Shown piece after piece: positions 6,337-48,119 of a DNA stretch of 50,822 nucleotides (position 1 is the first letter of the stretch; each line of letters opens with the position of its first letter). This DNA comes from an uncultured Bacillales bacterium (GTDB lineage Bacteria > Bacillota_I > Bacilli_A > RFN20 > CAG-826). The translations under genes and the position numbers were made by a program. The notes beneath the pieces were generated by a model. The model had not been told where the DNA came from, did not search any database, and was given only the letters and a program-made list of their open reading frames with translations. The DNA is taken from NCBI GenBank assembly GCA_946625285.1, contig CAMOSZ010000007.1, forward strand, positions 1 through 50,822, given 5' to 3'.

Positions 6337-7809
6337 TTATTCCTCCGGCACTAAACTGAATGTTCTATTGGTTCCTACGTTGTTATTAGAGTAGGTCTTA
6401 AGTTTGACTTGACTGACTTCACCACTGCTGAGGATGATAACACCTGTATCGTTGATGACTTCGTTAACTGGTACAGGCATAAAGTTGCCCCATGCACTTG
6501 GGATGTAATCACCACCAGAGATATCAATCTTAAATGTTGTTTCAGAGAGATATTCGTACGTGAAGTTAACAGCATTGCCTGTACAACTGATGCAGCCAAT
6601 ACCGGAGCCAAACTCTAAGTCGATTGAAATCGAGTTGTTTTCATAATGTAAACACTTACCAGCAAGAGGATCATTACCACCAACGATGCCGATGGACCAG
6701 TTCTTACTAGTAGCAATTGCTATGTCCTCAGCTTCTAATCTGTCATAGACAGTTTGATGGATTGAGATAACCTTAGATGCTGCACCAGATAAGTCTTTTA
6801 AGTTTCTAAACATTTGAATAACTGATTCTCTGGTTAATGAGGTGCAGTTACCAAAGTTCGCATTAACATTAAAATTGCTTTGTAATGTAATCTTGCTTAA
6901 TACAGGACAATCTTGAATAGCTTCTAAAGGAATAGGCACGTTAATTGTGTTAGGGAACCAAACCTCATTTAAAAGAGGACAGTTTTTAATAACTGCAGTG
7001 CCACCACTAAAGGATGTCAATCTATCTGGTAAATAAAGCTTTTTAAGATTTGGAATACTCCAGAATGCATAGCTCGAGAGCATTCTTAAATTTGAGTTAG
7101 CACCAAAGGTGACTATTTCGCATCCACAAAAACCTAAATTGTATTGCCCCCAGCTCGAGAGCGATGAAGGGAACTCAATATCACCCAAGTTTTCAATACG
7201 GTATAAAGCACTATTTTCGAGCGTGGCCAATTGACTACCAGGTTCAAACTCAATATGCGTACAACCACTTTGATAAAAAGCATGTGCCTTAATAGTTGTA
7301 ACTGTATAAGGAACGGTCACTGCGAATTCGTTAGTGGCCTCTGCTAAGAAATTGGTTGTGATAAAACTAACTCCTTCAGGGATTTCAAAGTGATCAAATG
7401 TTCCTTCAACAAGTTGAGAAAGTAAAGCGAACTCCTCTGATGTATGAATAATCCCTAAGTTTCCTTTAAGGACTGTGGCCACTATTGGTTCAGAAGCATA
7501 GATGTAATTAGCGGTAATTGTGCTATCGCTATTAGCGACTTCATCACATGCAATAAAGCTCATCTCCCAAGCACCTTCATAAGCTGTAATTGCTTTTGGG
7601 ATTTCAAATTCGTTATTGTGAACCCTATAAAGATAAGTGGCTCTAGCGTGAGTGAATTTTAAGTAATGATATGTGCTATCAATCTCTGTATCCACATCAA
7701 ACAAGAGTTTTACTCTTTTAGATTCACGATAGACGGATATTTCAAATGGTTCTACATCTGAAGTTAGTTTGCCATCTTTACCAACGTGAATATTAATTTC
7801 ATATGCCAT
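6337..7809 (-). CDS. BspA-type leucine-rich-repeat (LRR_5-like) protein, phage cargo
   Basis: 490 aa. The central part shows about 23-25 residue repeats of the BspA type (..IEFPSSLSSWGQYNLGFCGCEIVTF..NLRMLSSYAFWSIPNLKKLYLPDRLTSF..NCPLLNEVWFPNT..). Has its own GGAGGAT SD, 5 nt after the terS stop. Confidence 0.75.
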   Translation of the reverse strand: MAYEINIHVGKDGKLTSDVEPFEISVYRESKRVKLLFDVDTEIDSTYHYLKFTHARATYLYRVHNNEFEIPKAITAYEGAWEMSFIACDEVANSDSTITANYIYASEPIVATVLKGNLGIIHTSEEFALLSQLVEGTFDHFEIPEGVSFITTNFLAEATNEFAVTVPYTVTTIKAHAFYQSGCTHIEFEPGSQLATLENSALYRIENLGDIEFPSSLSSWGQYNLGFCGCEIVTFGANSNLRMLSSYAFWSIPNLKKLYLPDRLTSFSGGTAVIKNCPLLNEVWFPNTINVPIPLEAIQDCPVLSKITLQSNFNVNANFGNCTSLTRESVIQMFRNLKDLSGAASKVISIHQTVYDRLEAEDIAIATSKNWSIGIVGGNDPLAGKCLHYENNSISIDLEFGSGIGCISCTGNAVNFTYEYLSETTFKIDISGGDYIPSAWGNFMPVPVNEVINDTGVIILSSGEVSQVKLKTYSNNNVGTNRTFSLVPEE

Positions 7810-8283: not shown

Positions 8284-8574
8284 TTAGAATGGTTTTAAGT
8301 TTCCATCGCTGTCAAACTGACTGGCCTTCTTCTTAAAACGATTATGGCTAGCGTTGTGGCATTCACGACAAAGGTATTCGAGGTTATCAGGATTAAGTGT
8401 GATGTTTGGGTCGTTGATGTTATCAGGTGTTAAGGCTACCTTATGATGAACCTCTTCCCCTATCGCACCACATTTCTCACACCTACCATTGCACGCTGCT
8501 ATCTTTTGCTGCCTAGCTAAGAGCCAAGCACTACTCCTATAGAAGCGGTTAATAGCAGCACACTTATTTAGCAC
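8284..8574 (-). CDS. HNH endonuclease (packaging-associated)
   Basis: 96 aa; CEKCG...HHKV...N..NL..LC..CHN zinc/HNH motif. GTG start overlaps the metK-like stop. Confidence 0.85.
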   Translation of the reverse strand: MLNKCAAINRFYRSSAWLLARQQKIAACNGRCEKCGAIGEEVHHKVALTPDNINDPNITLNPDNLEYLCRECHNASHNRFKKKASQFDSDGNLKPF

Positions 8575-9358
8575 GAACTAAACCCCATTCACCAAAGCGA
8601 CGAAACCCGCCAACAGATTTAATGTAGTTTCTAGCGATTTCGACGATTTCACTATATGGTTTACCATCGACATATTCATCACCAATGGCACAACTTAGCT
8701 CAACGACCTTATTTGTCTTTTGGGCTTTTAAGAAGACATAGATATTTATTGACACATCAGCTTTGCTGAGGTCTTTACCATGTAAGCCACCACCAGTGAC
8801 TGAATCAGCCATATCGCTGCCCAATTTTCTGTTAGTCGCTCCCGTATCCACAGCTTCCGTTCCTTGCCAGTTGCCAAGTGGATTTATAACAGCTTTTTTG
8901 AAAATCTTTTTTAAATCGTCAGTATCTGCATTACTTTGACAGATAATAAGGCGGTTTTTATCTAAGACATATTTGCCATCAAAAGGATAGCCGCCGTAGA
9001 TATCCTTAGCGATTTGAGTTAATTTCTTTTGTTCTTCGGTTAAAGGCACTCCACGGAATATGCCATTATCACCGCATCTAATCTTGCCTTGTTGATTAGC
9101 ACTTAGAAGTGGATCTTGTGGAACTTCCCTATAATCGACCTTGACCTTATGGCCAACAATCTCAAATACGGCCTTTTTAATTTCTTTCTTATTTAATTTC
9201 ACGCTTGTTTCCGCGATTATATGACATTTGCCATGTCCAAGAAGGACTTCCACTGCTATTCGTGGATTCTTTTCTTTGCTATATGCCATATCTACCAAAG
9301 CACCAGCAATTGTGTCGCAAAGCTTATCTGGATGCTTAGGATTTACTTTTTCAAACAT
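8564..9358 (-). CDS. metK: short S-adenosylmethionine synthetase (MetK/MAT) homologue, phage-encoded
   Basis: 264 aa with MAT signature blocks: KHPDKLCDTIAGALVD (cf. GHPDK.[AC]DQISD), IRCGDNGIFRG (cf. GAGDQG.MFG), TGGGLHGKDLSKADVS (cf. GGGAFSGKD.[ST]KVDRS). AGGAGG 6 nt upstream of the ATG. Confidence 0.8.
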   Translation of the reverse strand: MFEKVNPKHPDKLCDTIAGALVDMAYSKEKNPRIAVEVLLGHGKCHIIAETSVKLNKKEIKKAVFEIVGHKVKVDYREVPQDPLLSANQQGKIRCGDNGIFRGVPLTEEQKKLTQIAKDIYGGYPFDGKYVLDKNRLIICQSNADTDDLKKIFKKAVINPLGNWQGTEAVDTGATNRKLGSDMADSVTGGGLHGKDLSKADVSINIYVFLKAQKTNKVVELSCAIGDEYVDGKPYSEIVEIARNYIKSVGGFRRFGEWGLVRAK

Positions 9359-9385
9359 AGTTTGCCTCCTTTTTGTTAATTTTGC

Positions 9386-9416
9386 CTATACTGAATAATC
9401 TTATTATTGAGTATAG
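9386..9416. promoter_or_regulatory. 31-bp near-perfect palindrome CTATACTGAATAAT-CTT-ATTATTGAGTATAG upstream of the metK-like gene
   Basis: 14-bp arms with one mismatch and a 3-bp spacer, 28 nt upstream of the metK-like ATG and downstream of the metQ stop. Either an operator or an RNA hairpin. Confidence 0.45.
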
Positions 9417-9511
9417 AGGTAAAAAGGCCCCTAAAAATGGGGTAAAAATACTATTTTCATAGGTATTATTAGACTCATTGGAATACATTCCTAATGAGAC
9501 AAATAATAAAA

Positions 9512-10249
9512 TCAGGCCATGTAGATGACCGAGTCACCGAACTTATTTTCGATATAAGTTTTAATACTTTCCTGCTTTAAAGCTTCAACTAAAACGCTGG
9601 TCTTTTTAGATTCTTGATTTCCGTTTTTCACAGCAATTACATTGGCCATTGTTTTAGCAATATCGGAATTCTTATCTTCAGTGATTAAGCAGCGATTCAC
9701 TACTCCTGCAGATAAAGCGTAGTTGCCATTAATAACTGCATAAGCACAATCGCTTAACATCAATGGAATGTTTTGAGCTTCGACTTGTACGAGATTAGCG
9801 GTTTGCATTCCATTTACTTTTAATAATTCCACCGCTCTATCGTAGTTGCTCTTATCACTAGAAACCAGAACCTTATCATTTGCGGCATAAGCATCTAAGC
9901 TTTTCTTGTTTCCTGAATAAATGCCCATTGGTTCAAAGTGTACATCTAACACTGGAACGAGATGCGTACCATTGCTCGCATTAAATTCATTTAAATAAGG
10001 TTTGTGTTGGAAGTAGTTAGCATCAAGCTCACCGTTTTCTAAAGCATAGTTAGGAAGGACATAATCGTTAAAGACTTTAATGTCTAATTTATAGCCTTCT
10101 TTTTCAATGTAACCTTTGGTTTGTTCTAAGATTAAAGCATGTGGAGTTGAGCTTGCTCCCACCACAATTGTTTTACTATTTTTGTTACATCCTGCTAGCG
10201 TAAGCACAGGCAAGCAGGCAAGAATAAATAATTTCAATGTTTTAAACAT
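9512..10249 (-). CDS. metQ: methionine ABC transporter substrate-binding lipoprotein (MetQ/NlpA family)
   Basis: Signal peptide plus lipobox LTLAGC; NlpA-family body (..YVLPNYALENGELDANYFQHKPYL..). ATG 10249 preferred (GGAGGG 4 nt upstream) over the track start 10261, which has no SD. Confidence 0.85.
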   Translation of the reverse strand: MFKTLKLFILACLPVLTLAGCNKNSKTIVVGASSTPHALILEQTKGYIEKEGYKLDIKVFNDYVLPNYALENGELDANYFQHKPYLNEFNASNGTHLVPVLDVHFEPMGIYSGNKKSLDAYAANDKVLVSSDKSNYDRAVELLKVNGMQTANLVQVEAQNIPLMLSDCAYAVINGNYALSAGVVNRCLITEDKNSDIAKTMANVIAVKNGNQESKKTSVLVEALKQESIKTYIENKFGDSVIYMA

Positions 10250-10881
10250 AAAACCCTCCATAATAAGAATCGAACTAGCAAGTTATTAATTATCTGAATT
10301 AGGCAAACGATAATCACGATGATCACCACGCTTTGTGCGATGATATTCCAATTAAATCTTTGGAAGCCATAAACGATTGCATAGTTTCCTAGACCACCAC
10401 CTCCAACTACTCCAGCCATTGCACTATAACCGATGATGTTTATTAAGGTGATACCAATCGCGTTAACTAAATAAGGCAACTTACATGCCCATTTAATTCT
10501 TACGATAATCTTGAGATTACTTGCTCCATCAATCTTTGCAGCTTCTATGACGTAACCAGGAATCTCAGATAAGATTTCTTCAATCAATCTAGCTTCAAAA
10601 GGAATAGCACATACCGTCAAAGGCACTATCATCGCTGTCGTTCCAATTGCTGTACCGATTAATGCTCGAGTCACAGGAAACATAAAAACGACAAGAAGAA
10701 TAAAAGGTATGCTCCTGCCCACATCAATAATTCGATTAAGAATGAAGTTAACTACCTTATTTGGAAATAATCCTCCTGGTCTTGTTTCGCTGACCATTGA
10801 GCCAATCGGCATCGCAATAATCCAAGATATAACTAAGGAAACACATGACATGTATAAAGTTTCAATCGTTGCATCTAGCAT
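10234..10881 (-). CDS. metI: methionine ABC transporter permease (MetI)
   Basis: 215 aa, multi-TM. Conserved MetI blocks RSIPFILLV, GTAIGTTAMIVPLT, PFEARLIEE, IEAAKIDGAS, GYSAMAGVVGGGGLG. AAGGAG 9 nt upstream. Confidence 0.9.
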   Translation of the reverse strand: MLDATIETLYMSCVSLVISWIIAMPIGSMVSETRPGGLFPNKVVNFILNRIIDVGRSIPFILLVVFMFPVTRALIGTAIGTTAMIVPLTVCAIPFEARLIEEILSEIPGYVIEAAKIDGASNLKIIVRIKWACKLPYLVNAIGITLINIIGYSAMAGVVGGGGLGNYAIVYGFQRFNWNIIAQSVVIIVIIVCLIQIINNLLVRFLLWRVLCLKH

Positions 10882-22889: not shown

Positions 22890-23468
22890 CTAGTCGCGAT
22901 TTAGTAGCCTTTTTAAATGGCACGCGACAAAGTAGCGAATTTCTTCTTTTTGTTTACACACGCTTGTACGTTTCTTCTTATCGTTAAAAACTAATAAAGC
23001 GATTTCGGTATCGTTTTTGTGTTCAAAGAAACTAAGCTTAAAAATTGCTCTTTCGATTTCAGATGCTTTAGCGAGGATCTTTTCGATTTGTTCAATTAGC
23101 CAATCATTATCAACACCACTTCTAGGTGATTCATTTGGATAGGCGAACTCTAAATCATATTCATCCTTTAAATAATCAAGAGATGCAGGTGGGACTACTT
23201 TGTAGTCTACATAGTATTCTTTATCGCTTGGTTTTTCCTTTTGTCTAACCCAGACATCGTCTTCCCCATAGCGAACTTCATAGTAAACGTCCTTTTGTTC
23301 ACGTCTTTCCGCATCACGGCGAATGTTGCGAACCTTATGGAACATTTCTTCTGTTGTTGGAATGTATCTAACTCTTTTCTTTTCATTGTCATAGAAAGAT
23401 AGATACGGTCCATTGATTTCTTTTGGGTCGTCAAAGATGACTTCCACTTTTTCTTCGTCTTTTTTCAT
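22890..23468 (-). CDS. sigma-70 region-4-like early regulator (first gene of the minus-strand phage block)
   Basis: 192 aa. The C-terminus ASEIERAIFKLSFFEHKNDTEIALLVF...VCKQKEEIRYFVACHLKRLL resembles an ECF-sigma r4 HTH. The N-terminal part is unassigned. Confidence 0.45.
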   Translation of the reverse strand: MKKDEEKVEVIFDDPKEINGPYLSFYDNEKKRVRYIPTTEEMFHKVRNIRRDAERREQKDVYYEVRYGEDDVWVRQKEKPSDKEYYVDYKVVPPASLDYLKDEYDLEFAYPNESPRSGVDNDWLIEQIEKILAKASEIERAIFKLSFFEHKNDTEIALLVFNDKKKRTSVCKQKEEIRYFVACHLKRLLNRD

Positions 23469-23765
23469 GTTTTTACCTCGTTGTCCTGCGAGATAAAGTC
23501 CATGAAGAAAGCAGCCTTAAAGAATGTCTGAGTTCATCATTAGCTAAATCTCGCTAATTTTTGAATTTGCAGACAACCTTGTAGATAGGCTGCGATTGCA
23601 ATTATTTTTACTGGTATCTACATAGCCGGCATTACCAGTTTTTTATGAGTCTGATCTGAACTATCACCACGCTGGTTATAATTCATTGTTCAAGCTCACG
23701 TTAAAATATTAAAATATAGGTGTTGTACCCACACGGTACGCGTTAAAGAAAGGATAAGAAAAATC

Positions 23766-25451
23766 GTGAGTAACTTTTCTAAATTCTTTTTAAGAATTTA
23801 TGAATTAAGAAATTCTTCTATAAAAAATAGAAAAGATTTTTTGACGGGCTTTTTTAATGCGGCCGGCAAAGACGGTCCAATATATTTAAGCGATGACACA
23901 TTAAAAAGTATCTGCAATGGTATTAGGAATCTATCTGAAGAATTAATGAATCATTTCCCAAATCCGTCGCTTACAAATAAAGAAAAAGAGTATCTCATGG
24001 ATACCCTTAACAAAAATAGAATATTAGACTTCTTTGATGCTTTTGACATCGACTCTGAAGAGAAACAAAATTATGAACTTCTCTGTAAAGCGATTGCTAT
24101 GCAATTTGAGAACTTTATGAAATACGGTGACATCGCCGGGGAAAGCAATAGCGTTAAAAAGCTGTATAAATATCTACTAGATTTAGACCTTCCTAAAGGA
24201 ATTGATAATAACGAAGATGCTGTTTATTCGGCAAAAACAATGTTTTTCAATGCCTTAAAAGAATTCGCAAAAGTAGATAAAAGCAAACCTTTGGTAGACA
24301 GTAGAGCTCAACTAGATAATGTTTTTCAAAATTTCTTCAATTCGTTTAAAGCCTTTGAGAAACGTTGCGACCATAAAGGACTAGCGATTTATCAAGATGT
24401 AAGAAATGAATTAATCTACAACAATGTGAGACTGAGTAAATATATAAAAATGGCTTCTGAGCCAGGATCACTTCCACTACCGATTCAAAAGGGTGCAAGC
24501 ATAATTGTCTATGACCATGTTGATTATCACGACATAAAGGCGTCGGTTATGCTGGACGAAGATGCTGTTTTTGGATTCAACAATACAATTAAAGCTATCG
24601 AAGGTACTGGGATACCTAAAAATAGAGAGTATGTTTTCTTCACAGAACAATATGCCTTTTATCTAGATAGTGATAAAAAGAATCTTTTACCCGGACTATT
24701 TGATGCAATTACTGCTCTAACTAAATTTTGGAATAGAGTTGAAGACTTATTAGCAAGTTCAGATAGATTGAAAAAGCTAAACAAAAAGATACATGACCAA
24801 CTTCCTGAATGCAGAAAAAATGGCTTTGCTTATTACTATGATGGAACATACTATCCACTAACAAAGCAGATAATATATGACACGATGATTGAAGATTTGG
24901 TATTTGACGAAAACGGTTATACCGTTTATACCGAAGATATCCCTATCCCATTCAAAGAAAATCCTGTTCTTAAAGGGAATTCTTTTGAAGAAATGTTTAC
25001 GAACTATTTAGACCGCATTTTAAATAGCGTTAGAAAAGCAAACGGTTTCTTATCAACTGAATGCTTGTTGATTACCGAAGACAACAATGTCAGATGGATG
25101 GCAACACAATCTATGTCCAGAGCAACTTTATCTAGAAAGATAAGAAAGATGGCAACTTTAGCATACAATAATCACGCCACCACTTTCTTTTGGGCATCTA
25201 TGCATGTTGGTTGCGAATTAGAACAAAACAATAGATATTATTTAGATAAAATGCCTAGAGAGAAATACAATTCTACATTGTTTATTTGCGTTTATGCTGG
25301 ACAGTACGATTCTATATTATCTTACTGCATAAGTGTCGATGACCTCTTAAAGAAATCTGAAATTGATATTAAAATAACTAATGACCCATTTATGGTATTT
25401 TTAGACCCTCTTTGGTTTGCAATAAGGAAGAGTCATGATGAGCAAAACTAA
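23766..25451 (+). CDS. large orphan protein A (561 aa), paralogue of the next gene
   Basis: Long ORF in AT-rich DNA. GTG start with only a weak AAAGGA 11 nt upstream, so the start is uncertain. Collinear similarity blocks with protein B. No enzymatic family recognised. Confidence 0.8.
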   Translation: MSNFSKFFLRIYELRNSSIKNRKDFLTGFFNAAGKDGPIYLSDDTLKSICNGIRNLSEELMNHFPNPSLTNKEKEYLMDTLNKNRILDFFDAFDIDSEEKQNYELLCKAIAMQFENFMKYGDIAGESNSVKKLYKYLLDLDLPKGIDNNEDAVYSAKTMFFNALKEFAKVDKSKPLVDSRAQLDNVFQNFFNSFKAFEKRCDHKGLAIYQDVRNELIYNNVRLSKYIKMASEPGSLPLPIQKGASIIVYDHVDYHDIKASVMLDEDAVFGFNNTIKAIEGTGIPKNREYVFFTEQYAFYLDSDKKNLLPGLFDAITALTKFWNRVEDLLASSDRLKKLNKKIHDQLPECRKNGFAYYYDGTYYPLTKQIIYDTMIEDLVFDENGYTVYTEDIPIPFKENPVLKGNSFEEMFTNYLDRILNSVRKANGFLSTECLLITEDNNVRWMATQSMSRATLSRKIRKMATLAYNNHATTFFWASMHVGCELEQNNRYYLDKMPREKYNSTLFICVYAGQYDSILSYCISVDDLLKKSEIDIKITNDPFMVFLDPLWFAIRKSHDEQN

Positions 25452-27240
25452 TTTATCGACCTTTTTACATATCATCCATGACTGTCAGAAGGATGAGTTA
25501 AAACTTAGTGGCCAAACAATAATCGGTCAACTTTTAGCCATCCAAAAAGCAGACATCTATGGCGATGAAAAACTAAAAGGCATTTACACAGGTGCTCGCC
25601 CTATTGTTCCTTCCGATATAGATTCATACACTAAAAAAGATAGAACTGCTGAGTTTAAAGGATTCTTTTTGAAAATCCTAAACGACAATAAAAAGGATTA
25701 TCTTTTCTCTAAATTTGAAATTGACCCTGAAGATAAAGAAGATTTTGATTTAATGTGCGAAGCATTAGCCACACAATATCAAAACTTCACAAGATATGGT
25801 GACTACGTCAACACCACCGTTAAATCGATTTATGAATCAATATTAGATAGTCACTTAAAGGAGACCGGCGATAAAGCAAACATCGATGCTGTTGTAGCTG
25901 CAACAAGATTATTTTATTCCTGCGTTGAAGCAGCATTAAGCATTAAGCTTGATGGTTCGCTTTTTGAAGCTAGAACTCCTATAGAAACATTCTTAAGAAA
26001 TATCTATGACGTTTTTAATGCCTTCAATGTTAGATGCAACCACGTAGGCAGATTAGCGTACAAACGTGTCAGGGATGATTTCTTCAAGAAAAACAGCAAA
26101 ATATCAGAGTATTTAAAAATGGTATCTGAACCTGGATCACTCCCAGTTGAATTAGAAAACCAAGTCACCGTTTTTCTTTGGAATTGTACTGAAGGCGAGG
26201 AACAATATTTCTTAGCTGGTAATTTCGACTACGATTTGGAATACAACAGAGAAGCTTTGATGGCAGGAATGAAAAAGTACATCCCTGCTGAAATACCAGA
26301 AATACCGTTCAGTGAATATTTAAATATTCATCTTAAAGGCGATAATAAGTGTCTTATTTCAGATTTTAAATATTTAATTAATGATGTTTATTTGTTACTA
26401 AAAACTATGCAAGCAGAATTTAAAGCAAGCAAAGAATGTGAAGATATTAATGCCAAAATCTTCGAATGTATAAAAAAGATTAATGGTGTTCAATTATCAC
26501 TGGTAACCGATGGAACTTATTATCCTAAAGAAGGCAAGCTTAAATATGCTGTAACAATGGAGATGTTCCAGTCTTTGGGTGATGGCAGAATAATCAAAAC
26601 CGGAGATGATTTGTTTACAGTAACTAATCTAAAACATGTTTATTCTGATTCTTTCGTGAATATGCTAGGTAACTTCATAGCTATGTTAATGGTTATATTG
26701 ACCATCAAGCATGAACCAAAAGAAGGCGAGGTTACCCCCACTTCTCAACTAGAAGATGAGTGCGGAACTCCAATAATGACGGAAATTGTTACACTTAACA
26801 CCAACAAAAAATGCCGCTATTTCATGTTCCCACCAACATGTAAGGCTAAAACTTATAGAAAAGTAAGAGAAATCGCATCACTAGCAGAGTCCGATGAAAT
26901 GCTGGGCTTCTTATATGGGCAGCTTGTCACTACTACCGCACCAACACTCGAGAATTTAATGAAAACTTCTGAAGAGAGGATGAAAAGCGGAACGGACTAT
27001 TTATGTGCTTATGGTTATTGGAATAAAAAACTATATCAGATTGTTATTCCTATGGAATATATAAAAAATTCAAGCTTCGATATGAAAACAGGTGAACCTC
27101 ATTTCGACGAAAGAGTATGGGACTGGTTTAAAAGACCAGAGCCAATTAAAGAAGAAAATGTATATTTCCTAAAGCCGCTATTTGATGCGATACACGAAAA
27201 CGAGGACAAAGGATTAACAATCGATTATCTTAAGGACTAA
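25435..27240 (+). CDS. large orphan protein B (601 aa), paralogue of A
   Basis: The ATG lies 17 nt inside the end of gene A, with AAGGAAG upstream. Blocks shared with A: F[DE]ID.E.K....L.C.A.A.Q[FY].NF.[KR]YGD; F[KN]AF..RC[DN]H.G; Y[IL]KM.SEPGSLP; DGTYYP; RK[IV]R..A.LA. Confidence 0.85.
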   Translation: MMSKTNLSTFLHIIHDCQKDELKLSGQTIIGQLLAIQKADIYGDEKLKGIYTGARPIVPSDIDSYTKKDRTAEFKGFFLKILNDNKKDYLFSKFEIDPEDKEDFDLMCEALATQYQNFTRYGDYVNTTVKSIYESILDSHLKETGDKANIDAVVAATRLFYSCVEAALSIKLDGSLFEARTPIETFLRNIYDVFNAFNVRCNHVGRLAYKRVRDDFFKKNSKISEYLKMVSEPGSLPVELENQVTVFLWNCTEGEEQYFLAGNFDYDLEYNREALMAGMKKYIPAEIPEIPFSEYLNIHLKGDNKCLISDFKYLINDVYLLLKTMQAEFKASKECEDINAKIFECIKKINGVQLSLVTDGTYYPKEGKLKYAVTMEMFQSLGDGRIIKTGDDLFTVTNLKHVYSDSFVNMLGNFIAMLMVILTIKHEPKEGEVTPTSQLEDECGTPIMTEIVTLNTNKKCRYFMFPPTCKAKTYRKVREIASLAESDEMLGFLYGQLVTTTAPTLENLMKTSEERMKSGTDYLCAYGYWNKKLYQIVIPMEYIKNSSFDMKTGEPHFDERVWDWFKRPEPIKEENVYFLKPLFDAIHENEDKGLTIDYLKD

Positions 27241-27275
27241 AAAACCAGCTAGCGAAATAACTAACTGGTCTTTTT
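27241..27275. terminator. bidirectional rho-independent terminator between convergent genes
   Basis: AAAA-ACCAGCTAG-cgaaataa-CTAACTGGT-cTTTTT: 9-bp stem with one mismatch, flanked by A and T runs. Confidence 0.7.
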
Positions 27276-28668
27276 ATTCATTAATGATTTCTATGATATA
27301 TGACTTCTTTAACCAGAAGCATTGTTTTGTATATTCAGTCACTCCTGTAAGCTTATCAGGAACAGGGAGCGGATTGGTATCTGCACCAGTTAAACCGTGT
27401 GGTCTGATATGAATATATGGATTCGAAGCGGATTTCGGGAAGTTGTTTAGTCGAGTCGTTTTACCGTTTTTATCAGTTTTAAATCCCCTAACGATATTAC
27501 CAGATAATAGCACCGCTTTTAATTTTTCAAATACTTTGCGGCCATCGTTATCTAATATCTCTTCAGGAATGGACCAAAACTTAACTTTAGAGAATTGATA
27601 TTTGCCATTAATCTTTTTAAAGATTACAAACATGAATTTTCTATTAATCATCATTTCGCGGAAGTCACTATCTTCCCATTCTTGATTAGCGACATCTAAA
27701 AAGCTAAAAGCAGGGAATGACATATTCTGTTCAATGTTTCCATTTTCTTCCACTCTTATTGTTTTGCAGATGATATTAGCTTTCACGAATTCATCGGCGT
27801 CATTGATGATTCCTTTAATACCGAGCATTTTAGCGGCATAGCGTTCAAATCTGTTCTTTGGTTCTTCTTCACCAGCGATTAGATTCTTAAAGTAGTCTTC
27901 ATCCTTACCAACATAGTAGCTCATGCGGTCAGTGATAACTTCTTCTATAGTTTTGGTCTTTAATTCTTCATAATCGACAACACTTTCGATTTCACCATTA
28001 GAAAAAAGTCTACGGAGAACGCCAGTCATATAAGCTGGTTTAAGAGCAAACTTTCTAGGCTTTAAATCAACACCATAATGGGCAGTAGCAGCTGAATCAA
28101 CTTTGCCGTGACCTGCTCCTGCTGTACAAGCTTCTAAATAATTAGTATCTCTTTGAGATATTGTATTGGCTTTGCCGCTTTTAATTTTATTTTGTAATAA
28201 GTTATAGTCGCTTTTAATGACTTCAATATCAGCAGGCGTAAATGTGTGATAGAAACCTGAATCCAAAGTCATCTCGCCATAGGTTTTACCATCAAGATAT
28301 TCATATAAAGCAATAAGTAATTGTTGGCATTTATGCCACATATCGCTATCTTCGAACTTCTGATTCTCGACTTTTTGGTAATTAAAAGTATTTAATGGGA
28401 GTCTTTCTTTAAATGAGAGACCATTTCTTGTTTTGTTATAACCTGTAGTTTTTAACTCAACACCCAAATTAGCAAAATCAGCTTCTGGTCTAGAATTGAC
28501 TGAATAATGAAAAACACCCTCTTCCACTATTTTGCCTAGAGCACCTTTATCGTTTCTTGCTTCGCCAGTAAGACGGTGATTAACATCAAGCTCGTTAAAG
28601 GTATGACCGCATCCGGTCTTAAGTTGGTCTAGTAATTCTTGTATAGAGTTATATACAGGTTCGCTCAT
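27274..28668 (-). CDS. Sau3AI/MutH-family type II restriction endonuclease (probable GATC specificity)
   Basis: 464 aa. NDKGALGKIVEE, GVELKTT (E.K), SFKERLPLNTFNY, ALKPAYMTGVLRR, IHIRPHG and QCFWLKKSYI are collinear with my recollection of Sau3AI. Two-domain size as in Sau3AI. Confidence 0.8.
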   Translation of the reverse strand: MSEPVYNSIQELLDQLKTGCGHTFNELDVNHRLTGEARNDKGALGKIVEEGVFHYSVNSRPEADFANLGVELKTTGYNKTRNGLSFKERLPLNTFNYQKVENQKFEDSDMWHKCQQLLIALYEYLDGKTYGEMTLDSGFYHTFTPADIEVIKSDYNLLQNKIKSGKANTISQRDTNYLEACTAGAGHGKVDSAATAHYGVDLKPRKFALKPAYMTGVLRRLFSNGEIESVVDYEELKTKTIEEVITDRMSYYVGKDEDYFKNLIAGEEEPKNRFERYAAKMLGIKGIINDADEFVKANIICKTIRVEENGNIEQNMSFPAFSFLDVANQEWEDSDFREMMINRKFMFVIFKKINGKYQFSKVKFWSIPEEILDNDGRKVFEKLKAVLLSGNIVRGFKTDKNGKTTRLNNFPKSASNPYIHIRPHGLTGADTNPLPVPDKLTGVTEYTKQCFWLKKSYIIEIINE

Positions 28669-28807: not shown

Positions 28808-30061
28808 ATGAAGAAGACTGTTATTGAATTATTCGCAGGTGTTGGTGGGTTCAGAGTTGGACTCAATAACATCACCGCTGTTGGGGAAGATGGTAGAGCC
28901 ATAGAAAAAGGTCCATGGAAATTCGTATGGGCCAATCAATGGGAACCATCAACTAAAACACAACATGCTTTCGATTGTTATAACATGCGTTTCCCACATG
29001 CTGTTGATAATTCAAATATCGATATCTCCAAAGTGGATAAAGCAAGCATACCTGACCACACGCTACTCACAGGCGGATTCCCATGTCAGGACTATTCAGT
29101 TGCTCATACCCTTTCAAAGTCTCATGGTATTGAAGGCAAAAAAGGTGTCCTTTGGTGGCAAATTAATGAAATCTTGCAGGTTAAAAGACCACCATTTGTT
29201 TTACTAGAGAATGTTGATCGTTTAGTCAAATCACCAGCAAGGCAAAGAGGACGTGACTTTGGTATCATGCTCCGCTGCTTATCCGAAGCTGGATATGCGA
29301 TGGAATGGAGAATCATTAATGCAGCAGATTATGGTCATCCACAAAGACGTAGAAGAATTTTCTTATTTGCCTTCCATAATAGCACCAAGCACTATAAAGA
29401 AATGGCGGCTTTAACCCCTGCTCAAATCATCTCTAAAAAAGGTGTATTTGCTAAAGAATTCCCAATCGAATCATTCGATGAAAACAAGATAAAAGTATTT
29501 GATTTTGTAGAAAAATATGGGGATTTAGTAGAGGTTTCCGATAAATTTAAAGCAGAATTCGAGAATGCAGGATTCATGATTGGTAATAAGGTTTATACCG
29601 TTAAAACTAAACCAATTGAAGAAGCTCCTATCACTCTCGGACAGATAGCAGAAAAAGACGGAGTTGATGCCCACTACTTCTTAAATGAAAACCAACGCAA
29701 GAAATATGAATATCTACGTGGTTCTAAGAAGATTCCAAGAGTCGATAAAAATGGATTTGAATACATGTACTCAGAGGGTGCAATGAGTCCTTATGATGAG
29801 CTAGATTTACCAGCAAGAACCATGCTTACATCCGAGGGAACTACTAATAGAAGTACTCATATCATCATGGACCCAAAAGAGGGTAAATTAAGAATTCTTA
29901 CACCAATCGAGTGTGAACGTATAAATCAATTCCCTGACAACTGGACAAACTCCGGTATGCCCGAGAAGAGAAGATACTTCATGATGGGCAATGCACTAGT
30001 GTGTGGAATTATTAAAAGAATAGGAAATCAAATTAAAAAGATTATAGAAAAAGAGGACTAG
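28808..30061 (+). CDS. DNA (cytosine-5) methyltransferase, partner of the Sau3AI-like endonuclease
   Basis: ELFAGVGGF (I), GGFPCQDYS (IV), LLENV (VI), QRRRRIF (VIII), MMGNALV (X). Confidence 0.93.
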   Translation: MKKTVIELFAGVGGFRVGLNNITAVGEDGRAIEKGPWKFVWANQWEPSTKTQHAFDCYNMRFPHAVDNSNIDISKVDKASIPDHTLLTGGFPCQDYSVAHTLSKSHGIEGKKGVLWWQINEILQVKRPPFVLLENVDRLVKSPARQRGRDFGIMLRCLSEAGYAMEWRIINAADYGHPQRRRRIFLFAFHNSTKHYKEMAALTPAQIISKKGVFAKEFPIESFDENKIKVFDFVEKYGDLVEVSDKFKAEFENAGFMIGNKVYTVKTKPIEEAPITLGQIAEKDGVDAHYFLNENQRKKYEYLRGSKKIPRVDKNGFEYMYSEGAMSPYDELDLPARTMLTSEGTTNRSTHIIMDPKEGKLRILTPIECERINQFPDNWTNSGMPEKRRYFMMGNALVCGIIKRIGNQIKKIIEKED

Positions 30062-30086: not shown

Positions 30087-30539
30087 TTATTCTGTGAAGC
30101 TTTTTTCTATCCATAAAAGCCATTTTTTTACAGTTTGATATCTTCTTTCATAGAGTTCATCGCTGTATTGTGGGTATTCTGTTTTGATTATGTCTATGAC
30201 TTCTTCCTTTTCCAATTTGACTCCATATACTTTTTCTGTAACATAGACTGTTCCAAATACTTTATCGGACATCAATAACCTTATAAGTTCTATTCTTTGC
30301 TTCGTTGGAGAAAGGTTTCTAACATAACATCCCACCTCAGTGAAATGCTTATCTTTAGAAATAAGCCCTAAATACATCGCCGCAGAAAGATAGTACATCA
30401 CTTGTCTATCGGTGACATTTTCCAAAACAAAGCTAATGTACTTCTTATCACTTAGTTTAGATTCGTCAGGAATATTAATTAGTGATATTACCTTTTCAAA
30501 ATCATCGGCTTGAGGGAATGGTATATCATTTCTTTCCAT
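30087..30539 (-). CDS. hypothetical 150-aa protein, third gene of the DGQHR operon (possible winged-helix)
   Basis: Start overlaps the Dam-family gene end by 14 nt. The RQVMYYLSAAMYLGLI helix pattern is suggestive of a DNA-binding fold only. Confidence 0.6.
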   Translation of the reverse strand: MERNDIPFPQADDFEKVISLINIPDESKLSDKKYISFVLENVTDRQVMYYLSAAMYLGLISKDKHFTEVGCYVRNLSPTKQRIELIRLLMSDKVFGTVYVTEKVYGVKLEKEEVIDIIKTEYPQYSDELYERRYQTVKKWLLWIEKSFTE

Positions 30540-31365
30540 AAATTAGAACCTCTCTTACTGTTCTACGCCCACTATTATTACCGCTAATATTTCTATGGAC
30601 ATCTAAATAATTAAATTTATATTTTGTTTTTGGGAATATTTCATTAACAAAAGCTGTGGAGTTATTGCTAATTATAACAATCGCTCCTTTTTCAATCAGC
30701 GAATCACAAAGATTTTCTAGTCGTTGTAAATCTTCCCTTGAAAAACCAGTGCTTGTGTATGATGTGAAGCCGGATGGCTCATAATCATATGGCGGATCTA
30801 AATATACATAGTCACCTTTTTTGGCACCTGAAACTGCATCAATAAAGTCGCAATTAAGAATCTCAACACCAGGTTTATTTAAATAAGCTGATATTTGTCT
30901 AATTTTCTCTTCACAAACTATTTCATGTTTTCCACTAGTAGTTCTGCCTAATGGCACATTAAAGAAACCTTTAGAGTTAACTCTATACAAGCCATTAAAA
31001 CATGTTCTATTTAAATAAATAATTCTTGCTGCCTTTTTCAAAGGGGACATCTTTTTATAAGAAGGTAATCTATCTAAATCACGAATTTGGTAAAAGTAAT
31101 CATGAGAGTGCTTTTTATCATGTTCTTTTAACAGTTTTATAAGCTCTTCTGGATTATCGCGAATTTGGATATAAACGTTATATAATTCTGGATTTAAATC
31201 GTTTATTGTAACATTCGGACATTCTAAAGCAAAAGTTAATGAGCCGCCACCGAAGAATGGCTCAAATAACCTATGCTTCTTAAGTTCTTCTATATCTATT
31301 AATTGAATGATATTAGAGACAAGCTTTCTTTTTCCACCTGCCCACTTTAATACTGGTTCCATCAT
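30526..31365 (-). CDS. Dam-family (D12 class, alpha) N6-adenine DNA methyltransferase
   Basis: LKWAGGKRKL, EPFFGGGSLTF (motif I), VYLDPPYDYE (motif IV). TAATG overlap with the upstream gene. Confidence 0.9.
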   Translation of the reverse strand: MMEPVLKWAGGKRKLVSNIIQLIDIEELKKHRLFEPFFGGGSLTFALECPNVTINDLNPELYNVYIQIRDNPEELIKLLKEHDKKHSHDYFYQIRDLDRLPSYKKMSPLKKAARIIYLNRTCFNGLYRVNSKGFFNVPLGRTTSGKHEIVCEEKIRQISAYLNKPGVEILNCDFIDAVSGAKKGDYVYLDPPYDYEPSGFTSYTSTGFSREDLQRLENLCDSLIEKGAIVIISNNSTAFVNEIFPKTKYKFNYLDVHRNISGNNSGRRTVREVLIYGKK

Positions 31366-33626
31366 TATTGATTTTCAATTAGCCAATCATACACATCTTT
31401 AATCTTTTTAAATTCAGATCTTGTGATTTGCTTTCCGTTATTGATTCTAGACTCAGAATAAGACATGGATTTTAACCAATCTAGAGTTTCGGCCCTATTC
31501 TTTTGGTCGTTTGGATTAACTAAGACATCCTTTAAGAATGTTGTCCAGTTTGTTTTATAACAAGCTATTTTACAAACATCGTCAAATCCTATCATTTCCC
31601 AGAATTCAATGTCCCTATCAACACCATTTCTAGAGTTTTTGACTTTTAAACTGGCAATATCTCTACTTACTCTAAGAGCCAAATCCTCAGGTATATATTC
31701 ATTTTGCCAATTTGCATTTTCAACAAATTTTTCTTTTATACTATCGATAATCTTTTGTTTGATTTTTGAAACGAACTCGGAAGCTTCAGGATTATAATCC
31801 ACGCAATACTCATTGATATATTTTTCCAAATCTTCATTGGTGAATTCACTATTATTGTGATTAAAGGCAACCTGCAATGCTCTCCAAGATGTTTCTTTAG
31901 CACTACCACCTTTTGCGGTTTTAATTTCATTTCTTCTTTCAATTGGTAAATTATTTATTGTATCTGCCAAGGAAACAATCCAATCTTCACATTTATTCCA
32001 TAAATCATCAACATCGTAAATGACAGAAGGAAGATTGTATTTTTTAATAACCAAATCAACAATATCGCCAATTACTCTTATAACCGCTACCATCATGTTA
32101 TTTATTGTTAAATAGCCGGCAGAGCCTTTTTCCCATTCTTCTTGGCAGAACTGTTCAATAGTATCTAAACACTTCTTTAGGAATGGATAAATAACATCCG
32201 CTGTTTCTCTGCTTTCAGTTCTATCTAAAACACCATGCTCGGATATTTCGTTCTTTTTATATTTATTAAAGAAGGAGGTCTTTTCAATGGCGTTCTTTAA
32301 ATATTCAATAGTAATGCAACGTCTATCTGTAACTGTATTCTCACCAGTAACAACTCTGCCGTATAGAGGAGAGTCTTTGTCTTCACCTAATTTTTGACAA
32401 ATATGAAGAATTACAGCTTCTTTTCTCTTTGCTAGTTCAGGTGAGTCCCAATTAAGGTCAATAATTAAAGTATTTCTAAGTGATTTAGAAACAGCTTTTT
32501 GATTTTCATTAATATCCATGAACATTCTTACTTGTTCATCTTTGTCCATATTAACAAAAGCTACTACTGGGACCGTGTTTGATGATGCAAATCTAGATTC
32601 TGAGTATCCGTATAATCTATGTTGACCATCAATAACATATGCAGATTGATACTCTTTTGGTAAATGCAATATACCAATTCTAGAAACAGAAGAGGTGTTT
32701 TGTGATGCCAAATCGAATTGAAGGCCCCTCTTTGCATCAATAGAAATAATTAATGAGTTAGGGAAATATCCGCCGTTGTTAACGAACTCTCTAATCTTTT
32801 TAAGTCTGTCCTTTTTGATTAATCTTTGGTAGGTAGGCATTAAATCGTGATTCGCGTTTGTTCTATGTAAAATGTAAGAAATCTTTAATAAACGTTCTGG
32901 CTCAATCAAAAAAGCATAATATGTGTATCCGCCCATTTTGCCTTCAATAGCAGGAATCTTTTCATCCATTCCTTTGATTGTTTGGTGAGCAAATAAACTA
33001 CCTAGTAATTGGTATCTTGCCGCACTGCCAAGATGATCTACCAAAGCTTTATAGTAGCTTACTGTTTCATCGTCAAAATAAGCAATTTTAGCATTGGCTA
33101 AACGGTCTCTATCTTGAGAACCAAGAACATAGTTCTTTGTGGCAAATATATACTTAAATTTACGTCCTGGATATTCCTTGCTAATTTCTCTAACGAGTCC
33201 TTTATATTTACTTTCCATCTCAGCTATTTCTTGAAGCCAAGATTTATTACGCTCGAATTTTTCAGTTTCCTTGCATTCAATGAATAAGCAGGTTTCATCA
33301 TCAATGGCAATGACATCTAATTGTTTTGTTAAATCTGGGTATTCCTCTGAATATGATAATTTAAAATGCCTATCAGCATTCATGACAGTAAAGCCCATTT
33401 TATAGAAAATCATCCATACTTCATCTTCGAAAGCATCACCGATTTTCTTTGGCTGCATCATTAAAGCGGAGCCATTTTTATATGTTTTTTTAACAACCCA
33501 TCCCTGAGATTCTTTAGTTTGAATAAGTGCCGCATCAAATTTTTCTTCAACACCATCTTTGCTTCTAATTGCCGCTGCAGCTGCCAAAGCTTCACCACTA
33601 GCTAAATGTTCCCAGTTCGTTGCCAT
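31365..33626 (-). CDS. Mrr-cat-like PD-(D/E)XK nuclease domain fused to a DGQHR (DndB/ParB-like) domain, with a long helical C-terminal region
   Basis: FEDEVWMIFYKMGF...QLDVIAIDDETCLFIECK (Mrr_cat-like D..E.K), then AYVIDGQHRLYGY (DGQHR motif). ATG 33626 preferred (GGAGG 6 nt upstream); the track start 33632 abuts the SD. Confidence 0.8.
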   Translation of the reverse strand: MATNWEHLASGEALAAAAAIRSKDGVEEKFDAALIQTKESQGWVVKKTYKNGSALMMQPKKIGDAFEDEVWMIFYKMGFTVMNADRHFKLSYSEEYPDLTKQLDVIAIDDETCLFIECKETEKFERNKSWLQEIAEMESKYKGLVREISKEYPGRKFKYIFATKNYVLGSQDRDRLANAKIAYFDDETVSYYKALVDHLGSAARYQLLGSLFAHQTIKGMDEKIPAIEGKMGGYTYYAFLIEPERLLKISYILHRTNANHDLMPTYQRLIKKDRLKKIREFVNNGGYFPNSLIISIDAKRGLQFDLASQNTSSVSRIGILHLPKEYQSAYVIDGQHRLYGYSESRFASSNTVPVVAFVNMDKDEQVRMFMDINENQKAVSKSLRNTLIIDLNWDSPELAKRKEAVILHICQKLGEDKDSPLYGRVVTGENTVTDRRCITIEYLKNAIEKTSFFNKYKKNEISEHGVLDRTESRETADVIYPFLKKCLDTIEQFCQEEWEKGSAGYLTINNMMVAVIRVIGDIVDLVIKKYNLPSVIYDVDDLWNKCEDWIVSLADTINNLPIERRNEIKTAKGGSAKETSWRALQVAFNHNNSEFTNEDLEKYINEYCVDYNPEASEFVSKIKQKIIDSIKEKFVENANWQNEYIPEDLALRVSRDIASLKVKNSRNGVDRDIEFWEMIGFDDVCKIACYKTNWTTFLKDVLVNPNDQKNRAETLDWLKSMSYSESRINNGKQITRSEFKKIKDVYDWLIENQ

Positions 33627-33750
33627 AAACATCCTCCGCTATATATTTTATGTTTATAAACTTTAAGCATTATATCACAAATATAACGCTTCTTCACTAT
33701 AGTTATATCTTTTCGGCGACGAATACGGGATTCCAACCAAAAAATATAAG

Positions 33751-33938: not shown

Positions 33939-34012
33939 TGGTGCCTCCTGGCGGAATCGGACCACCAATAGATCCTTACCATGGATCCGTTATACCACTT
34001 AACTAAGGAGGC
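33939..34012 (-). tRNA. tRNA-Thr (anticodon GGU), CCA encoded
   Basis: Hand-folded 74 nt: GCCTCCT TA GTTA AGTGGTA TAAC G GATCC ATGGTAA GGATC TATT GGTGG TCCGATT CCGCC AGGAGGC A CCA. All four stems pair. The T-loop has C instead of U at position 55. Confidence 0.85.
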
Positions 34013-47600: not shown

Positions 47601-48118
47601 AATCCTCCTTCTTCAACGGAAGCAAGGAATAAGTTTTCAATAACTTCTCCTAATTCGTCAAATCCAGTTGAACTGCATTTAAGCCTTAAATCTTTTAATC
47701 CAAAATAAGCAGTTTTATCAGTGTAAGTGACGAGTAATGGTAATTTTCTACCGTTATAGTCAATGTTTGCGTCTAGACTTAAGTCTAAATCAGATAAACT
47801 TCTTATAACTAAGTCTAATTCTGCATCAAGGTTGATGTTATTTGTTCTTGTTGCTTCATCTGATGTTTTAAAACTAATGTTGAAGTTATCAAAATCAGCA
47901 TGAATTCCATTACAACCTTGTTCTGGATATGAAGAGATTCTGTTAACGAATTGTTGGAAGTGTGTTTCTTCAAAGTCATCATCGTTTTGTCTAAAAGATA
48001 AATTAACGGTTCTAACTTTGTTAGGCGTTAAGACATATCCACCTACTAATGTGCCTGCGAAAGCGACAAAGCCAGTTCCGATTTTGGCACATAATTTTCC
48101 AAATTTCTTTTTGTCCAT
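44621..48118 (-). CDS. very large N-terminally membrane-anchored surface protein, unknown function
   Basis: 1165 aa. N-terminal TM (IGTGFVAFAGTLVGGYVL), then an Asp/Asn/Lys-rich extracytoplasmic body. No motif recognised. Confidence 0.8.
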   Translation of the reverse strand: MDKKKFGKLCAKIGTGFVAFAGTLVGGYVLTPNKVRTVNLSFRQNDDDFEETHFQQFVNRISSYPEQGCNGIHADFDNFNISFKTSDEATRTNNINLDAELDLVIRSLSDLDLSLDANIDYNGRKLPLLVTYTDKTAYFGLKDLRLKCSSTGFDELGEVIENLFLASVEEGGLGIDPIAKFESVCNEFVGKMDISSILSKFTGGSAPTINSEEEQLPNGDWKFDLEINMKKEVVVTPATETTPAVTEEQDNFINITIVTAENYDLKRVDLGTISFDNFTISGAIDFEVKPLTVYKPDDPLYRHYDANVNYVEIVSYKGWIKKLANLLADENQKMSLSFNLDLSNGGRVDENTGLKSAVTEIGSIKGDINLDASELIDLSSWAVEIPDPYNQEDQPNFDEISNRVRRNDTENDEKEETFLRKVLNGIKLGMNLKIIGQNNVEYSNLDVKYLNNSGYIKFNEQEDNNNVKKSVLKAKVETETFNWILDELPNEIKSLGDDVDMSSLTSTFNAITDSELITSIKEGDYSGILDVLETLKNDGEKIYVGLNLSSLGLGDDAKVDLVLDSYDSYFDENLDPNHPEEHKVLALSVKDVQVGGLNIDFDLTNDTYQDVVMSEEEAATYDSLDFLPTVFDQVSNILKTKQSGFALTGDLRDYKNLGLHINGQGQFDYNTKFGFGNLTIDQYKYHADQVWYSHKIALDVDDKSEDRTQNNAKFIYGDVNASENIKGTIDIQSVLDIVDVIKTFIKDNKDDERYSKFIDPILELLGFGTIAKAIEDKNYLRLTANDLLKEIKQYDNGKMIKIVVAGDIFSLESDIELRVNFASLDNKVIDSIELKDLILGDSPEAGKEDGRKWLNLKLTLQDFNENAKSPIPSSLTSKDFISLASIKTLLQFGLNTTKLGYYKLKADISLSIGSLNIDTFPIMFHIVVKNSYVKVYGVIEDVPNFSVFVQDSLLTTDIKSELTFETYKDGDPNKTNDVGGYFTIRKTTDPWIGYTKIHTYRSTSKNFIKADNLLYYLLNGMLDIKKSYITGDLGGFDQQGEEKKPGDYPNALTSTGFKYSESAKRWDIGLNLKAITGISQLNTLEASIYASEVGGVTYLTRLYANLDIDLKIHLGVKADIRVLDIDPNKTDWDNSIKTAFNKINSYVFPSGKNMLDKLDCYTCRP

Positions 48119-48119
48119 T

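Follow-up and report, generated by a model that had tools for sequence, protein, structure and literature searches.

Introduction

Defence genes carried as cargo in prophage hotspots or in positions embedded in restriction–modification (R-M) operons are well known, and there are many such candidates; defence hotspots exist in P2/P4-like and other prophages. The described systems that bear most closely on the genes reported here are Lamassu/ABC-3C, Hachiman, the NACHT/STAND proteins and the genes found within Type I R-M operons. In the accepted logic of LmuA, the effector is N-terminal and the docking domain is C-terminal (PMC10586767). Genes embedded in Type I R-M operons include PrrC, covered in a "guilt by embedding" survey (bioRxiv 10.1101/2024.01.29.577857), and TgvAB of Vibrio cholerae VPI-2 (PMC11411939), and such embedding is regarded as an established pointer to defence function. 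Here we describe a pair of genes, A and B, in a stretch of 50,822 nucleotides (nt) from an uncultured Bacillales bacterium (contig CAMOSZ010000007.1; this whole stretch is called the window below). Each protein consists of a helical N-terminal module of ~140 amino acids (aa), named the N-module, and a C-terminal module of ~415 aa with helical and alpha/beta parts, named the C-module. With a probability of roughly 0.6, we read A/B as prophage cargo and as members of a new family of two-module proteins with a role in defence against phages or other mobile DNA.

A/B share the ~140-aa N-module with the Lamassu/ABC-3C systems (LmuA-type, with CTD10 or CTD11), where it is either fused or encoded by a separate first gene, and these systems also occur as cargo at prophage ends. 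However, A/B have no CTD docking domain, no MC gene or gene for a DUF2326/SMC-like ATPase lies nearby, and the part of A/B that follows the N-module is the unrelated C-module. Hachiman is linked to A/B through some HamA proteins that carry the N-module and through a stand-alone C-module gene of Gastranaerophilales that abuts the 3' end of hamB, whereas A/B lack a DUF1837/HamA domain (Pfam, PADLOC) and have no helicase partner in the window. The sole link to the NACHT/STAND proteins is the presence of an N-module before NACHT in P0116 and P0149; A/B differ from them in having no NTPase domain (Pfam). Like PrrC and TgvAB, stand-alone C-module genes are embedded in Type I R-M operons, between hsdS and hsdR, in several unrelated genomes, but neither the C-module nor A/B show any sequence or fold relationship to PrrC, GmrSD or the PADLOC candidates, and A/B of the window adjoin R-M systems rather than being embedded in them. 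As in the prophage defence hotspots, the slot of A/B is fixed (divergent from the first early gene and proximal to the attachment (att) site) and its contents vary between related phages, with five R-M or defence sets here and ABC-3C in phiStag1. On the other hand, the A-type family is the constant first gene of this slot, which is unusual for a pure hotspot.

Results

Gene pair and two-module architecture

Gene A (23766-25451, plus strand) has a GTG start and encodes 561 aa, and gene B (25435-27240, plus strand) has an ATG start and encodes 601 aa; the two reading frames share 17 nt. BLASTP of B against A gave a single collinear alignment (E=5e-45, 23% identity, 44% positives) spanning residues 2-559 of A and 5-592 of B, which is essentially their full length. 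An earlier, sequence-only reading of this DNA had described the two genes as overlapping, collinear, full-length paralogues and had quoted a series of conserved blocks; its reading frames are exact, and all of the blocks are present in the A–B alignment.

We then searched 1.84 billion cluster representatives exhaustively with a profile of 18 family members (E<=1e-3) and obtained 201 proteins of three classes. About 22 are full-length representatives of 540-613 aa. Dozens of proteins of 400-435 aa match profile positions ~150-563 only, which is the C-module alone, and many proteins of 113-932 aa match positions ~4-140 only, which is the N-module together with other sequence. The profile search and hhalign delimit the N-module of A to residues ~1-145 (23766-24200, plus strand) and its C-module to residues ~150-561 (24213-25448, plus strand), the stand-alone family being homologous to residues ~150-561 of A/B with a probability of 99.9% (E=9e-36). 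B has the same layout, as it matches the hidden Markov models of the N-module (E=2e-36) and the C-module (E=1e-176). Neither A nor B has a significant match in Pfam, PADLOC or PHROGs, in agreement with the earlier statement that they could not be placed in a family; they are not orphans, since they are modular and have ~200 relatives among the representatives searched.

The N-module in known defence systems

Among 41 representatives that match in the N-module only, the partner domain is an NBR1-like Ig domain in 16, CTD11 in seven, CTD10 in one, HamA in two and NACHT in one. The HamA fusions are P0096 and P0132, both with strong PADLOC matches to HamA. In P0116 the N-module is followed by NACHT and SNaCT14, and P0149 is a second, weak NACHT case (E=0.007). 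Six N-module proteins continue into the CTD11 of ABC-3C systems, fusions with CTD10 or CTD11 include P0106, P0112 and P0135, and in some proteins the segment between the N-module and CTD11 looks like an HNH/zinc-finger region. P0163 (132 aa) is an N-module alone, encoded in an operon with the order N-module, CTD11 protein, MC7 and DUF2326 ATPase; this operon (L115-L117) adjoins a holin gene at another prophage end. The N-module region also weakly matches the PADLOC LmuA model PDLC03857 and the candidate PDC-S32, and a word-indexed homology search with the N-module profile returned two matches only. Known defence systems thus contain the N-module as a unit that is both autonomous and portable. 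Because it is usually placed before recognised effectors (HamA, and the probable HNH region before CTD11), it is probably a regulatory, coupling or oligomerisation part and not an effector. The operon of L115-L117 also lies next to a gene for a Pol-beta nucleotidyltransferase and is divergent from a 172-aa HTH-like (helix-turn-helix) gene; these loci present another prophage-end cargo slot with a layout similar to that of A/B.

Both N-termini had been read as degenerate XRE-type HTH domains, which found no support. No HTH family of Pfam matches A or B at E<=1 or the 41 N-module proteins at E<=1e-3, and a search of PDB sequences with the N-module profile returned no HTH protein at E<=10. In the predicted secondary structure, the putative HTH helices of A (residues 22-32 and 43-50) are ~10 residues apart, and the length of the loop between them varies within the family.

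The C-module in cellular loci

Stand-alone C-module proteins are encoded, in variable islands, in at least 89 species-representative genomes of Bacteroidota, Clostridia, Bacilli, Melainabacteria, Kiritimatiellae, Spirochaetes and other groups. There is no fixed partner gene, and an N-module gene was found near the C-module gene in 0 of 80 loci. We took a census of 126 flanking genes (two on either side) in 35 dereplicated loci; redundant Type I specificity models were abundant in the PADLOC scan of these neighbours, so the HsdS count alone was used. The commonest neighbour is the Type I specificity subunit HsdS (5/35 loci), together with HsdM and HsdR, and the others include C5 methylases, Fic, AlbA_2/HATPase_c_4, YhcG/DUF1016, DUF4238, AbiEii-like AAA_21, transposases and recombinases. 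The C-module gene follows hsdS in L045, L048, L052, L061 and L070; in the first two of these, hsdR stands on its other side, and the neighbouring genes overlap with it. In six Gastranaerophilales-type loci, the start of the C-module gene abuts the stop codon of a gene for a 1055-aa helicase, the best PDB match of which is HamB (E=2e-38). A 270-aa protein encoded upstream of this helicase has PDB matches to HamA only (E about 0.004) and shows no similarity to the two fusions of the N-module with HamA; the HamA assignment is weak, while that of its partner HamB is strong.

The earlier proposal of A/B as a defence candidate gains from these contexts, in that the N-module is common to HamA, NACHT and Lamassu proteins and the C-module is found in Type I R-M operons and after Hachiman genes, whereas the mechanistic ideas attached to the proposal fell away. 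The same sharing of the N-module would also fit a counter-defence decoy, in which the N-module of A/B disrupts the assembly of host Lamassu, Hachiman or NACHT systems and so shields the prophage on induction. The N-module is an autonomous unit of host defence components, and a Foldseek search of BFVD with a structural model of A (described below) gave partial matches, at E~1e-3 only, to uncharacterised phage proteins of 150-210 aa. However, A/B point away from the lytic operon and stand among defence cargo, and the C-module is nearly absent from viral contigs (2 of 2.9 million) while being common in cellular islands and co-oriented with the genes of R-M and Hachiman operons. We regard a decoy as improbable.

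Prophage context and the boundary of the integrated element

Positions 1-23468 of the window carry siphophage genes on the minus strand. The structural genes encode head-tail connectors, the major capsid protein, a protease, the portal and the large terminase; a ParB-methylase and an SNF2 helicase are encoded beyond the terminase, and the replication genes encode a VapE-type primase, PolA, an Enc34-type single-stranded DNA-binding protein and a DUF2800 PD-(D/E)xK nuclease. The first gene of the early/replication operon (22890-23468, minus strand; 192 aa, unannotated) is divergent from A. By synteny, it is the positional counterpart of sigma-70-r4-like genes in locus L002 and in phiStag1, a sequenced Streptococcus phage relative that has the same replication module and in which the first early gene is annotated as a sigma-70 family protein. 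The 192-aa gene is sigma-like by position only, because no sequence similarity to these counterparts was detected.

Two cargo cassettes follow B. The first consists of a MutH/Sau3AI-type restriction endonuclease (27274-28668, minus strand; PF02976, E=6e-27) and a C5 cytosine methylase (28808-30061, plus strand; PF00145, E=9e-63). The second (30087-33632, minus strand) encodes a DUF7226 protein (150 aa; PF23871), a D12-class Dam methylase (279 aa; PF02086) and a DndB-like DGQHR protein (755 aa; PF14072). Since no restriction endonuclease could be recognised in the second cassette, it falls outside the canonical R-M systems and may instead be a distinct modification-linked defence cassette. A/B had been placed between the phage early region and two R-M-type cassettes; the two cassettes do adjoin them, and only the second departs from a canonical R-M system.

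A tRNA-Thr(GGT) gene (33939-34012, minus strand; ARAGORN) lies past the cargo with its 3' end toward it, and ordinary host genes come next, such as those for GH3, a MiaB-like radical-SAM enzyme and an ABC transporter. The same arrangement is found with tRNA-His in L001 (17756-17831) and with tRNA-Trp in L003 (7209-7282) and L104: in all three lineages, the tRNA gene separates the cargo genes from the host genes, its 3' end being toward the cargo. L002, L003 and L004 share an identical block of a single A-family gene and R-M genes (99.96% identity) up to L003:7211-7219, past which they run into three different sequences; the point of divergence is the 3' end of the tRNA-Trp gene. In three lineages, a single integrated element thus comprises the phage, the A-family gene or genes and the R-M cargo and has a tRNA gene at its end, and the tRNA-Thr of the window probably marks the att-side boundary of the element made up of the phage, A/B and the cargo. 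Since the cargo block ends at a tRNA gene in each of these lineages, A/B are att-proximal prophage cargo, and since the boundary is tRNA-Thr, tRNA-His or tRNA-Trp, phages with the same cargo slot use different tRNA integration sites. No repeat of the 3' end of tRNA-Thr was found across the window and a 10-kb left extension (L008); the far end of the prophage lies beyond. A segment of ~220 bp near the att/tRNA boundary is duplicated in L002 (16404-16622 and 16681-16899, 85% identity) and not in L003.

The position by a tRNA gene near the att end raises the possibility of a novel recombinase or transposase function of A/B, either to move the cargo block or to insert the phage at tRNA genes. There is no integrase within the window, and several of the conserved acidic residues of A sit on strands of its predicted structure. 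In related streptococcal prophages, however, the recombinase genes come after the lysis module, i.e., at the opposite end of the genome. Stand-alone C-module genes are parts of operons and show none of the hallmarks of mobile elements themselves, and no RNase H-like, DDE, serine or tyrosine recombinase was matched in Pfam or by Foldseek. We therefore consider a recombinase highly improbable.

In phiStag1, the slot divergent from the first early gene holds an ABC-3C/Lamassu-type operon (CTD11 protein, small protein and DUF2326 ATPase), with an IS66 element and a gene for a surface protein behind it. Because phiStag1 holds other cargo there, the slot is a cargo hotspot in this phage group. The CTD11 protein of phiStag1 was tested as a carrier of the N-module; the module is absent, and the protein is unrelated to A.

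Several further features of the phage and its flank were recorded. Three phage genes at 8564-10881 (minus strand), situated past the terminase region and before the ParB-methylase and all with PHROG matches, encode an S-adenosylmethionine synthetase N-domain (264 aa), a MetQ-like Lipoprotein_9 (249 aa) and a BPD_transp_1 permease (215 aa). metK is also present in the streptococcal relatives, and the three genes may be auxiliary genes that supply S-adenosylmethionine to the phage methyltransferase. A 490-aa LRR_5 protein (6337-7809, minus strand) is encoded next to the terminase, and a 762-aa RCC1/WD40-like repeat protein is encoded in the tail region past the left edge of the window (L008:18982-20390); the latter probably has a role in host recognition. 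On the host side, two adjoining genes (44621-49004, minus strand) encode proteins of 1165 aa and 294 aa without a Pfam match.

Relatives, pairing and cargo

Full-length relatives are very rare: among 5.8 billion proteins, 11 clusters match A and 11 match B, and a metagenome pattern scan with the A1 alignment found two loci only. The full-length proteins form four clades. Clade I (A-type) comprises A of the window, P0002, P0003, P0005 and P0006, with P0007 as a sister branch, and its members are the upstream member of an overlapping pair in every resolved locus (the loci of P0006 and P0007 were left out). Clade II (P0015-P0018) always provides the downstream member. Clade III (B-type), made up of B of the window and P0011-P0014, occurs as the downstream member or as a single gene, and clade IV (P0008-P0010) as a single gene (the locus of P0010 was left out). 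P0002 is an 86% relative of A, and P0012 is a 98% twin of B. There are five independent pairs, namely that of the window, P0002+P0016, P0003+P0017, P0005+P0018, and a partial upstream member with P0015, as well as single-gene loci for P0008, P0009, P0013 and P0014. The pairing is not obligatory, and the idea of a two-gene system is not supported, in view of the single genes of clades III and IV. P0004 (512 aa, on a 2750-bp ENA contig) is 95% identical to A over 58% of A and has an additional BPD_transp_1 domain; it is either an assembly chimera or the product of a rearrangement that fused A to the permease-like gene of the phage.

In every locus with enough flanking sequence, the gene or pair comes first after the same kind of phage early/replication module and points away from this module. 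Next come R-M or defence genes in convergent orientation, of a different type in each case: Sau3AI-like and Dam/DndB-like genes in the window, Type I R-M in L001, Bsp6I with a C5 methylase in L002-L007, MutH-like and AspBHI/Mrr-like genes with a C5 methylase in L096, an Eco57I-like gene with a GGACT-domain protein gene in L099, and a T5orf172 gene in L109-L110. Both the A-family and the C-module recur next to or inside known defence systems in unrelated genomes, as counted raw, without a matched control of random genes. The contextual part of the sequence-only reading holds to this extent, that R-M or defence cargo and the prophage position recur with the homologues, which are not always paired. 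Five independent metagenome assemblies (L003-L007) end within the first early gene, 400-640 nt 5' of a single A-type gene, while L002 continues into the phage, which points to repeats in the phage part or to its variation between strains, the cargo block being shared.

Expression signals

The divergent intergenic region between the first early gene and A (23469-23765) is about 298 bp long. A perfect TATAAT can be read at 23677-23682, ~85 nt 5' of A, and the GTG start of A is preceded by a GGA-type ribosome-binding site. This TATAAT may belong to the promoter of A, although a consensus promoter scan found no promoter-like site within the region. A search of the same region for repeats found only weak inverted repeats and no convincing operator repeats. 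B starts with ATG-ATG inside the last codons of A and is preceded by the Shine-Dalgarno sequence AAGGAAGAG (25425-25433, plus strand), which makes translational coupling of B to A plausible. The G+C content of A/B (0.33-0.35) is lower than that of the phage (0.39), as had been observed before; it equals that of the host flank (0.336) and is thus not unique to A/B.

Predicted structure and conserved residues

An AlphaFold2 model of A made from an 18-sequence alignment has a mean predicted local distance difference test (pLDDT) score of 85.4 and a predicted template modelling (pTM) score of 0.73. It is all helical in residues 1-232, followed by a beta-beta-alpha-beta unit (240-300), a long helical hairpin (307-354) and an alpha/beta domain (357-561). 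A separate model of residues 355-561 (window 24828-25448) reached a pLDDT of 83.6 and a pTM of 0.81. The top PDB matches of this second model are weak (E 0.03-0.3, template modelling score ~0.2, root-mean-square deviation 11-19 Å) and nearly all are phage portal proteins, including those of T7 (gp8), HRP29, 80alpha/SaPI1, E1004, LME-1 and PhiM1; they are too weak to interpret, yet strikingly consistent.

Transmembrane segments had been said to be absent from both proteins. This is true of A, in which the maximum Kyte-Doolittle mean over 19 residues is 1.14, but B has one strongly hydrophobic stretch at residues 406-424 (26650-26706; SFVNMLGNFIAMLMVILTI) with a mean of 1.97. The stretch aligns with helix 407-424 in the model of A, which is amphipathic, and in clade III members, B included, the strongly hydrophobic helix is followed by a clade-specific insertion of ~20 residues. 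The helix of B may be buried in the protein core, or it may be exposed under certain conditions and act on membranes.

Twelve positions are at least 70% conserved in both the full-length and the stand-alone families: D/E184, Y209, P237, L240, Y249, E288/289, F292, D359, D439, R457, R498 and P548. D/E184, Y209, E288/289, D359, D439, R457 and R498 are candidates for an active or ligand-binding site, judging from their conservation. A and B both keep essentially all of the family-wide conserved positions, the sole difference being D439N in B. This substitution is shared by P0012, but Asp is retained in the rest of clade III, and Asn also occurs in one member of clade I. The suggestion of an active/inactive pair is therefore not borne out, as the conserved residues are kept in both proteins and D439N is not clade-wide.

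That suggestion had come with a resemblance of A to Pol-beta nucleotidyltransferases, which did not survive either. DHVD is present in A and P0002 only, with DNVH, DNEH, DLPN, DQLN or NCTE in the others; G234-S235 is followed by a strand (240-250) and not a helix; and neither the Foldseek PDB matches nor Pfam (NTP_transf_2 and related families, E<=1) contain a nucleotidyltransferase. Other assignments were also rejected. The order of elements around D359 and D439 superficially fits a palm/RRM-like polymerase or cyclase, but none was among 400 Foldseek PDB matches of the domain model. A HEPN-like Rx4H motif seen in some stand-alone proteins has Lys in place of His in most members and is absent from A/B. 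PD-(D/E)xK and DDE readings of the acidic residues found no matching motif spacing and no fold matches.

The overlapping pair next to R-M systems could also be an addiction or stabilisation (toxin-antitoxin-like) module, or a regulator of the adjoining R-M cargo, that retains the cargo or the prophage. Asn in place of Asp at position 439 of B, which is conserved in both families, could fit a catalytically different partner. However, A and B do not resemble a toxin-antitoxin pair, being equal in size and paralogous over their full length. Both proteins retain every other conserved residue, and single-gene forms are common. A dedicated R-M regulator is further disfavoured because the R-M partners differ in type each time. 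We judge this explanation unlikely, and less likely than the repressor discussed below.

Discussion

A and B are "moron" genes, carried by a temperate siphophage as cargo close to its att end. If they act in defence, they would be transcribed from their own promoter in the lysogen and be translationally coupled, and they may form hetero-oligomers, whereas the single-gene relatives may form homo-oligomers. Coupling or regulation would fall to the shared N-module and the family-specific work to the C-module, as sensor, effector or both. A superinfecting phage would be stopped in its development, or the cell would be killed by A/B (abortive infection). The task of the single-gene relatives would here fall to a duplicated pair, probably a hetero-oligomer.

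A number of points weigh against this interpretation. The functional case, as we assess it, rests wholly on guilt by association, and the neighbour counts around the C-module stand without a matched control set. PADLOC (v2.0.0, 5027 models) assigned no family to A, B, the distant relative P0019 or four stand-alone C-module proteins. Foldseek found nothing significant in the PDB for the model of A (best E=0.42) or for that of residues 355-561 (best E=0.028, template modelling score <=0.22), and no catalytic motif is assignable in A/B. The full-length family has no match in INPHARED or IMG/VR, so packaging of the A/B family in virions is not shown. Lastly, the cargo varies more than the A-family gene in front of it, which occupies the position of a CI-type repressor, and no other repressor was identified in the visible part of the phage.

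This last point leads to the main rival, in which A (with B) is a lysogeny regulator or immunity repressor whose N-terminal module binds DNA at the early promoter and whose C-terminal module senses an induction signal. A is the only plus-strand gene adjoining the phage, across the divergent intergenic region from the first early gene, and it is constant in the slot, where the flank suffices, while the downstream cargo varies. Small divergent genes of the kind typical of repressors occupy the slot in a relative, NatCom_11578. Against this, Pfam and the PDB profile search gave no HTH or peptidase S24 signature, and the intergenic region is devoid of convincing operator repeats. At least 89 chromosomal loci outside phages, R-M operons among them, carry the C-module on its own, the N-module belongs to Lamassu, Hachiman and NACHT proteins, and phiStag1 fills the same slot with an ABC-3C defence operon. 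A repressor is, in our view, unlikely, and a role of A/B in defence remains the preferred reading.

A more far-reaching version of the defence reading is tentative, and we hold it to be rather doubtful. In this version, the C-module would be a new fold and a widespread single-protein immune effector or sensor, while the N-module would serve as a portable domain for coupling, by which HamA, HNH-CTD11, NACHT, the NBR1-like Ig domain and the C-module are connected to a common activation or assembly logic; A/B would be a hetero-oligomeric prophage version of broadened specificity. The family has no counterpart in Pfam, PADLOC, PHROGs or the PDB, and its fold is confidently predicted by the models and unmatched. 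Neither module appears to have been named before.

If A/B and the C-module proteins are protective, they would be a new defence family, and a new mechanism would be probable because the working domain has no structural precedent. The N-module, if the above is true, would be a newly defined N-terminal part that is portable and common to Lamassu, Hachiman, NACHT and the A/B family, and would give a handle on how unrelated defence systems share regulatory and assembly parts. In the same case, the slot would be a conserved cargo site in a widespread group of Firmicute prophages (with DUF2800, Enc34-type single-stranded DNA-binding protein, PolA and primase) that could be mined for further systems.

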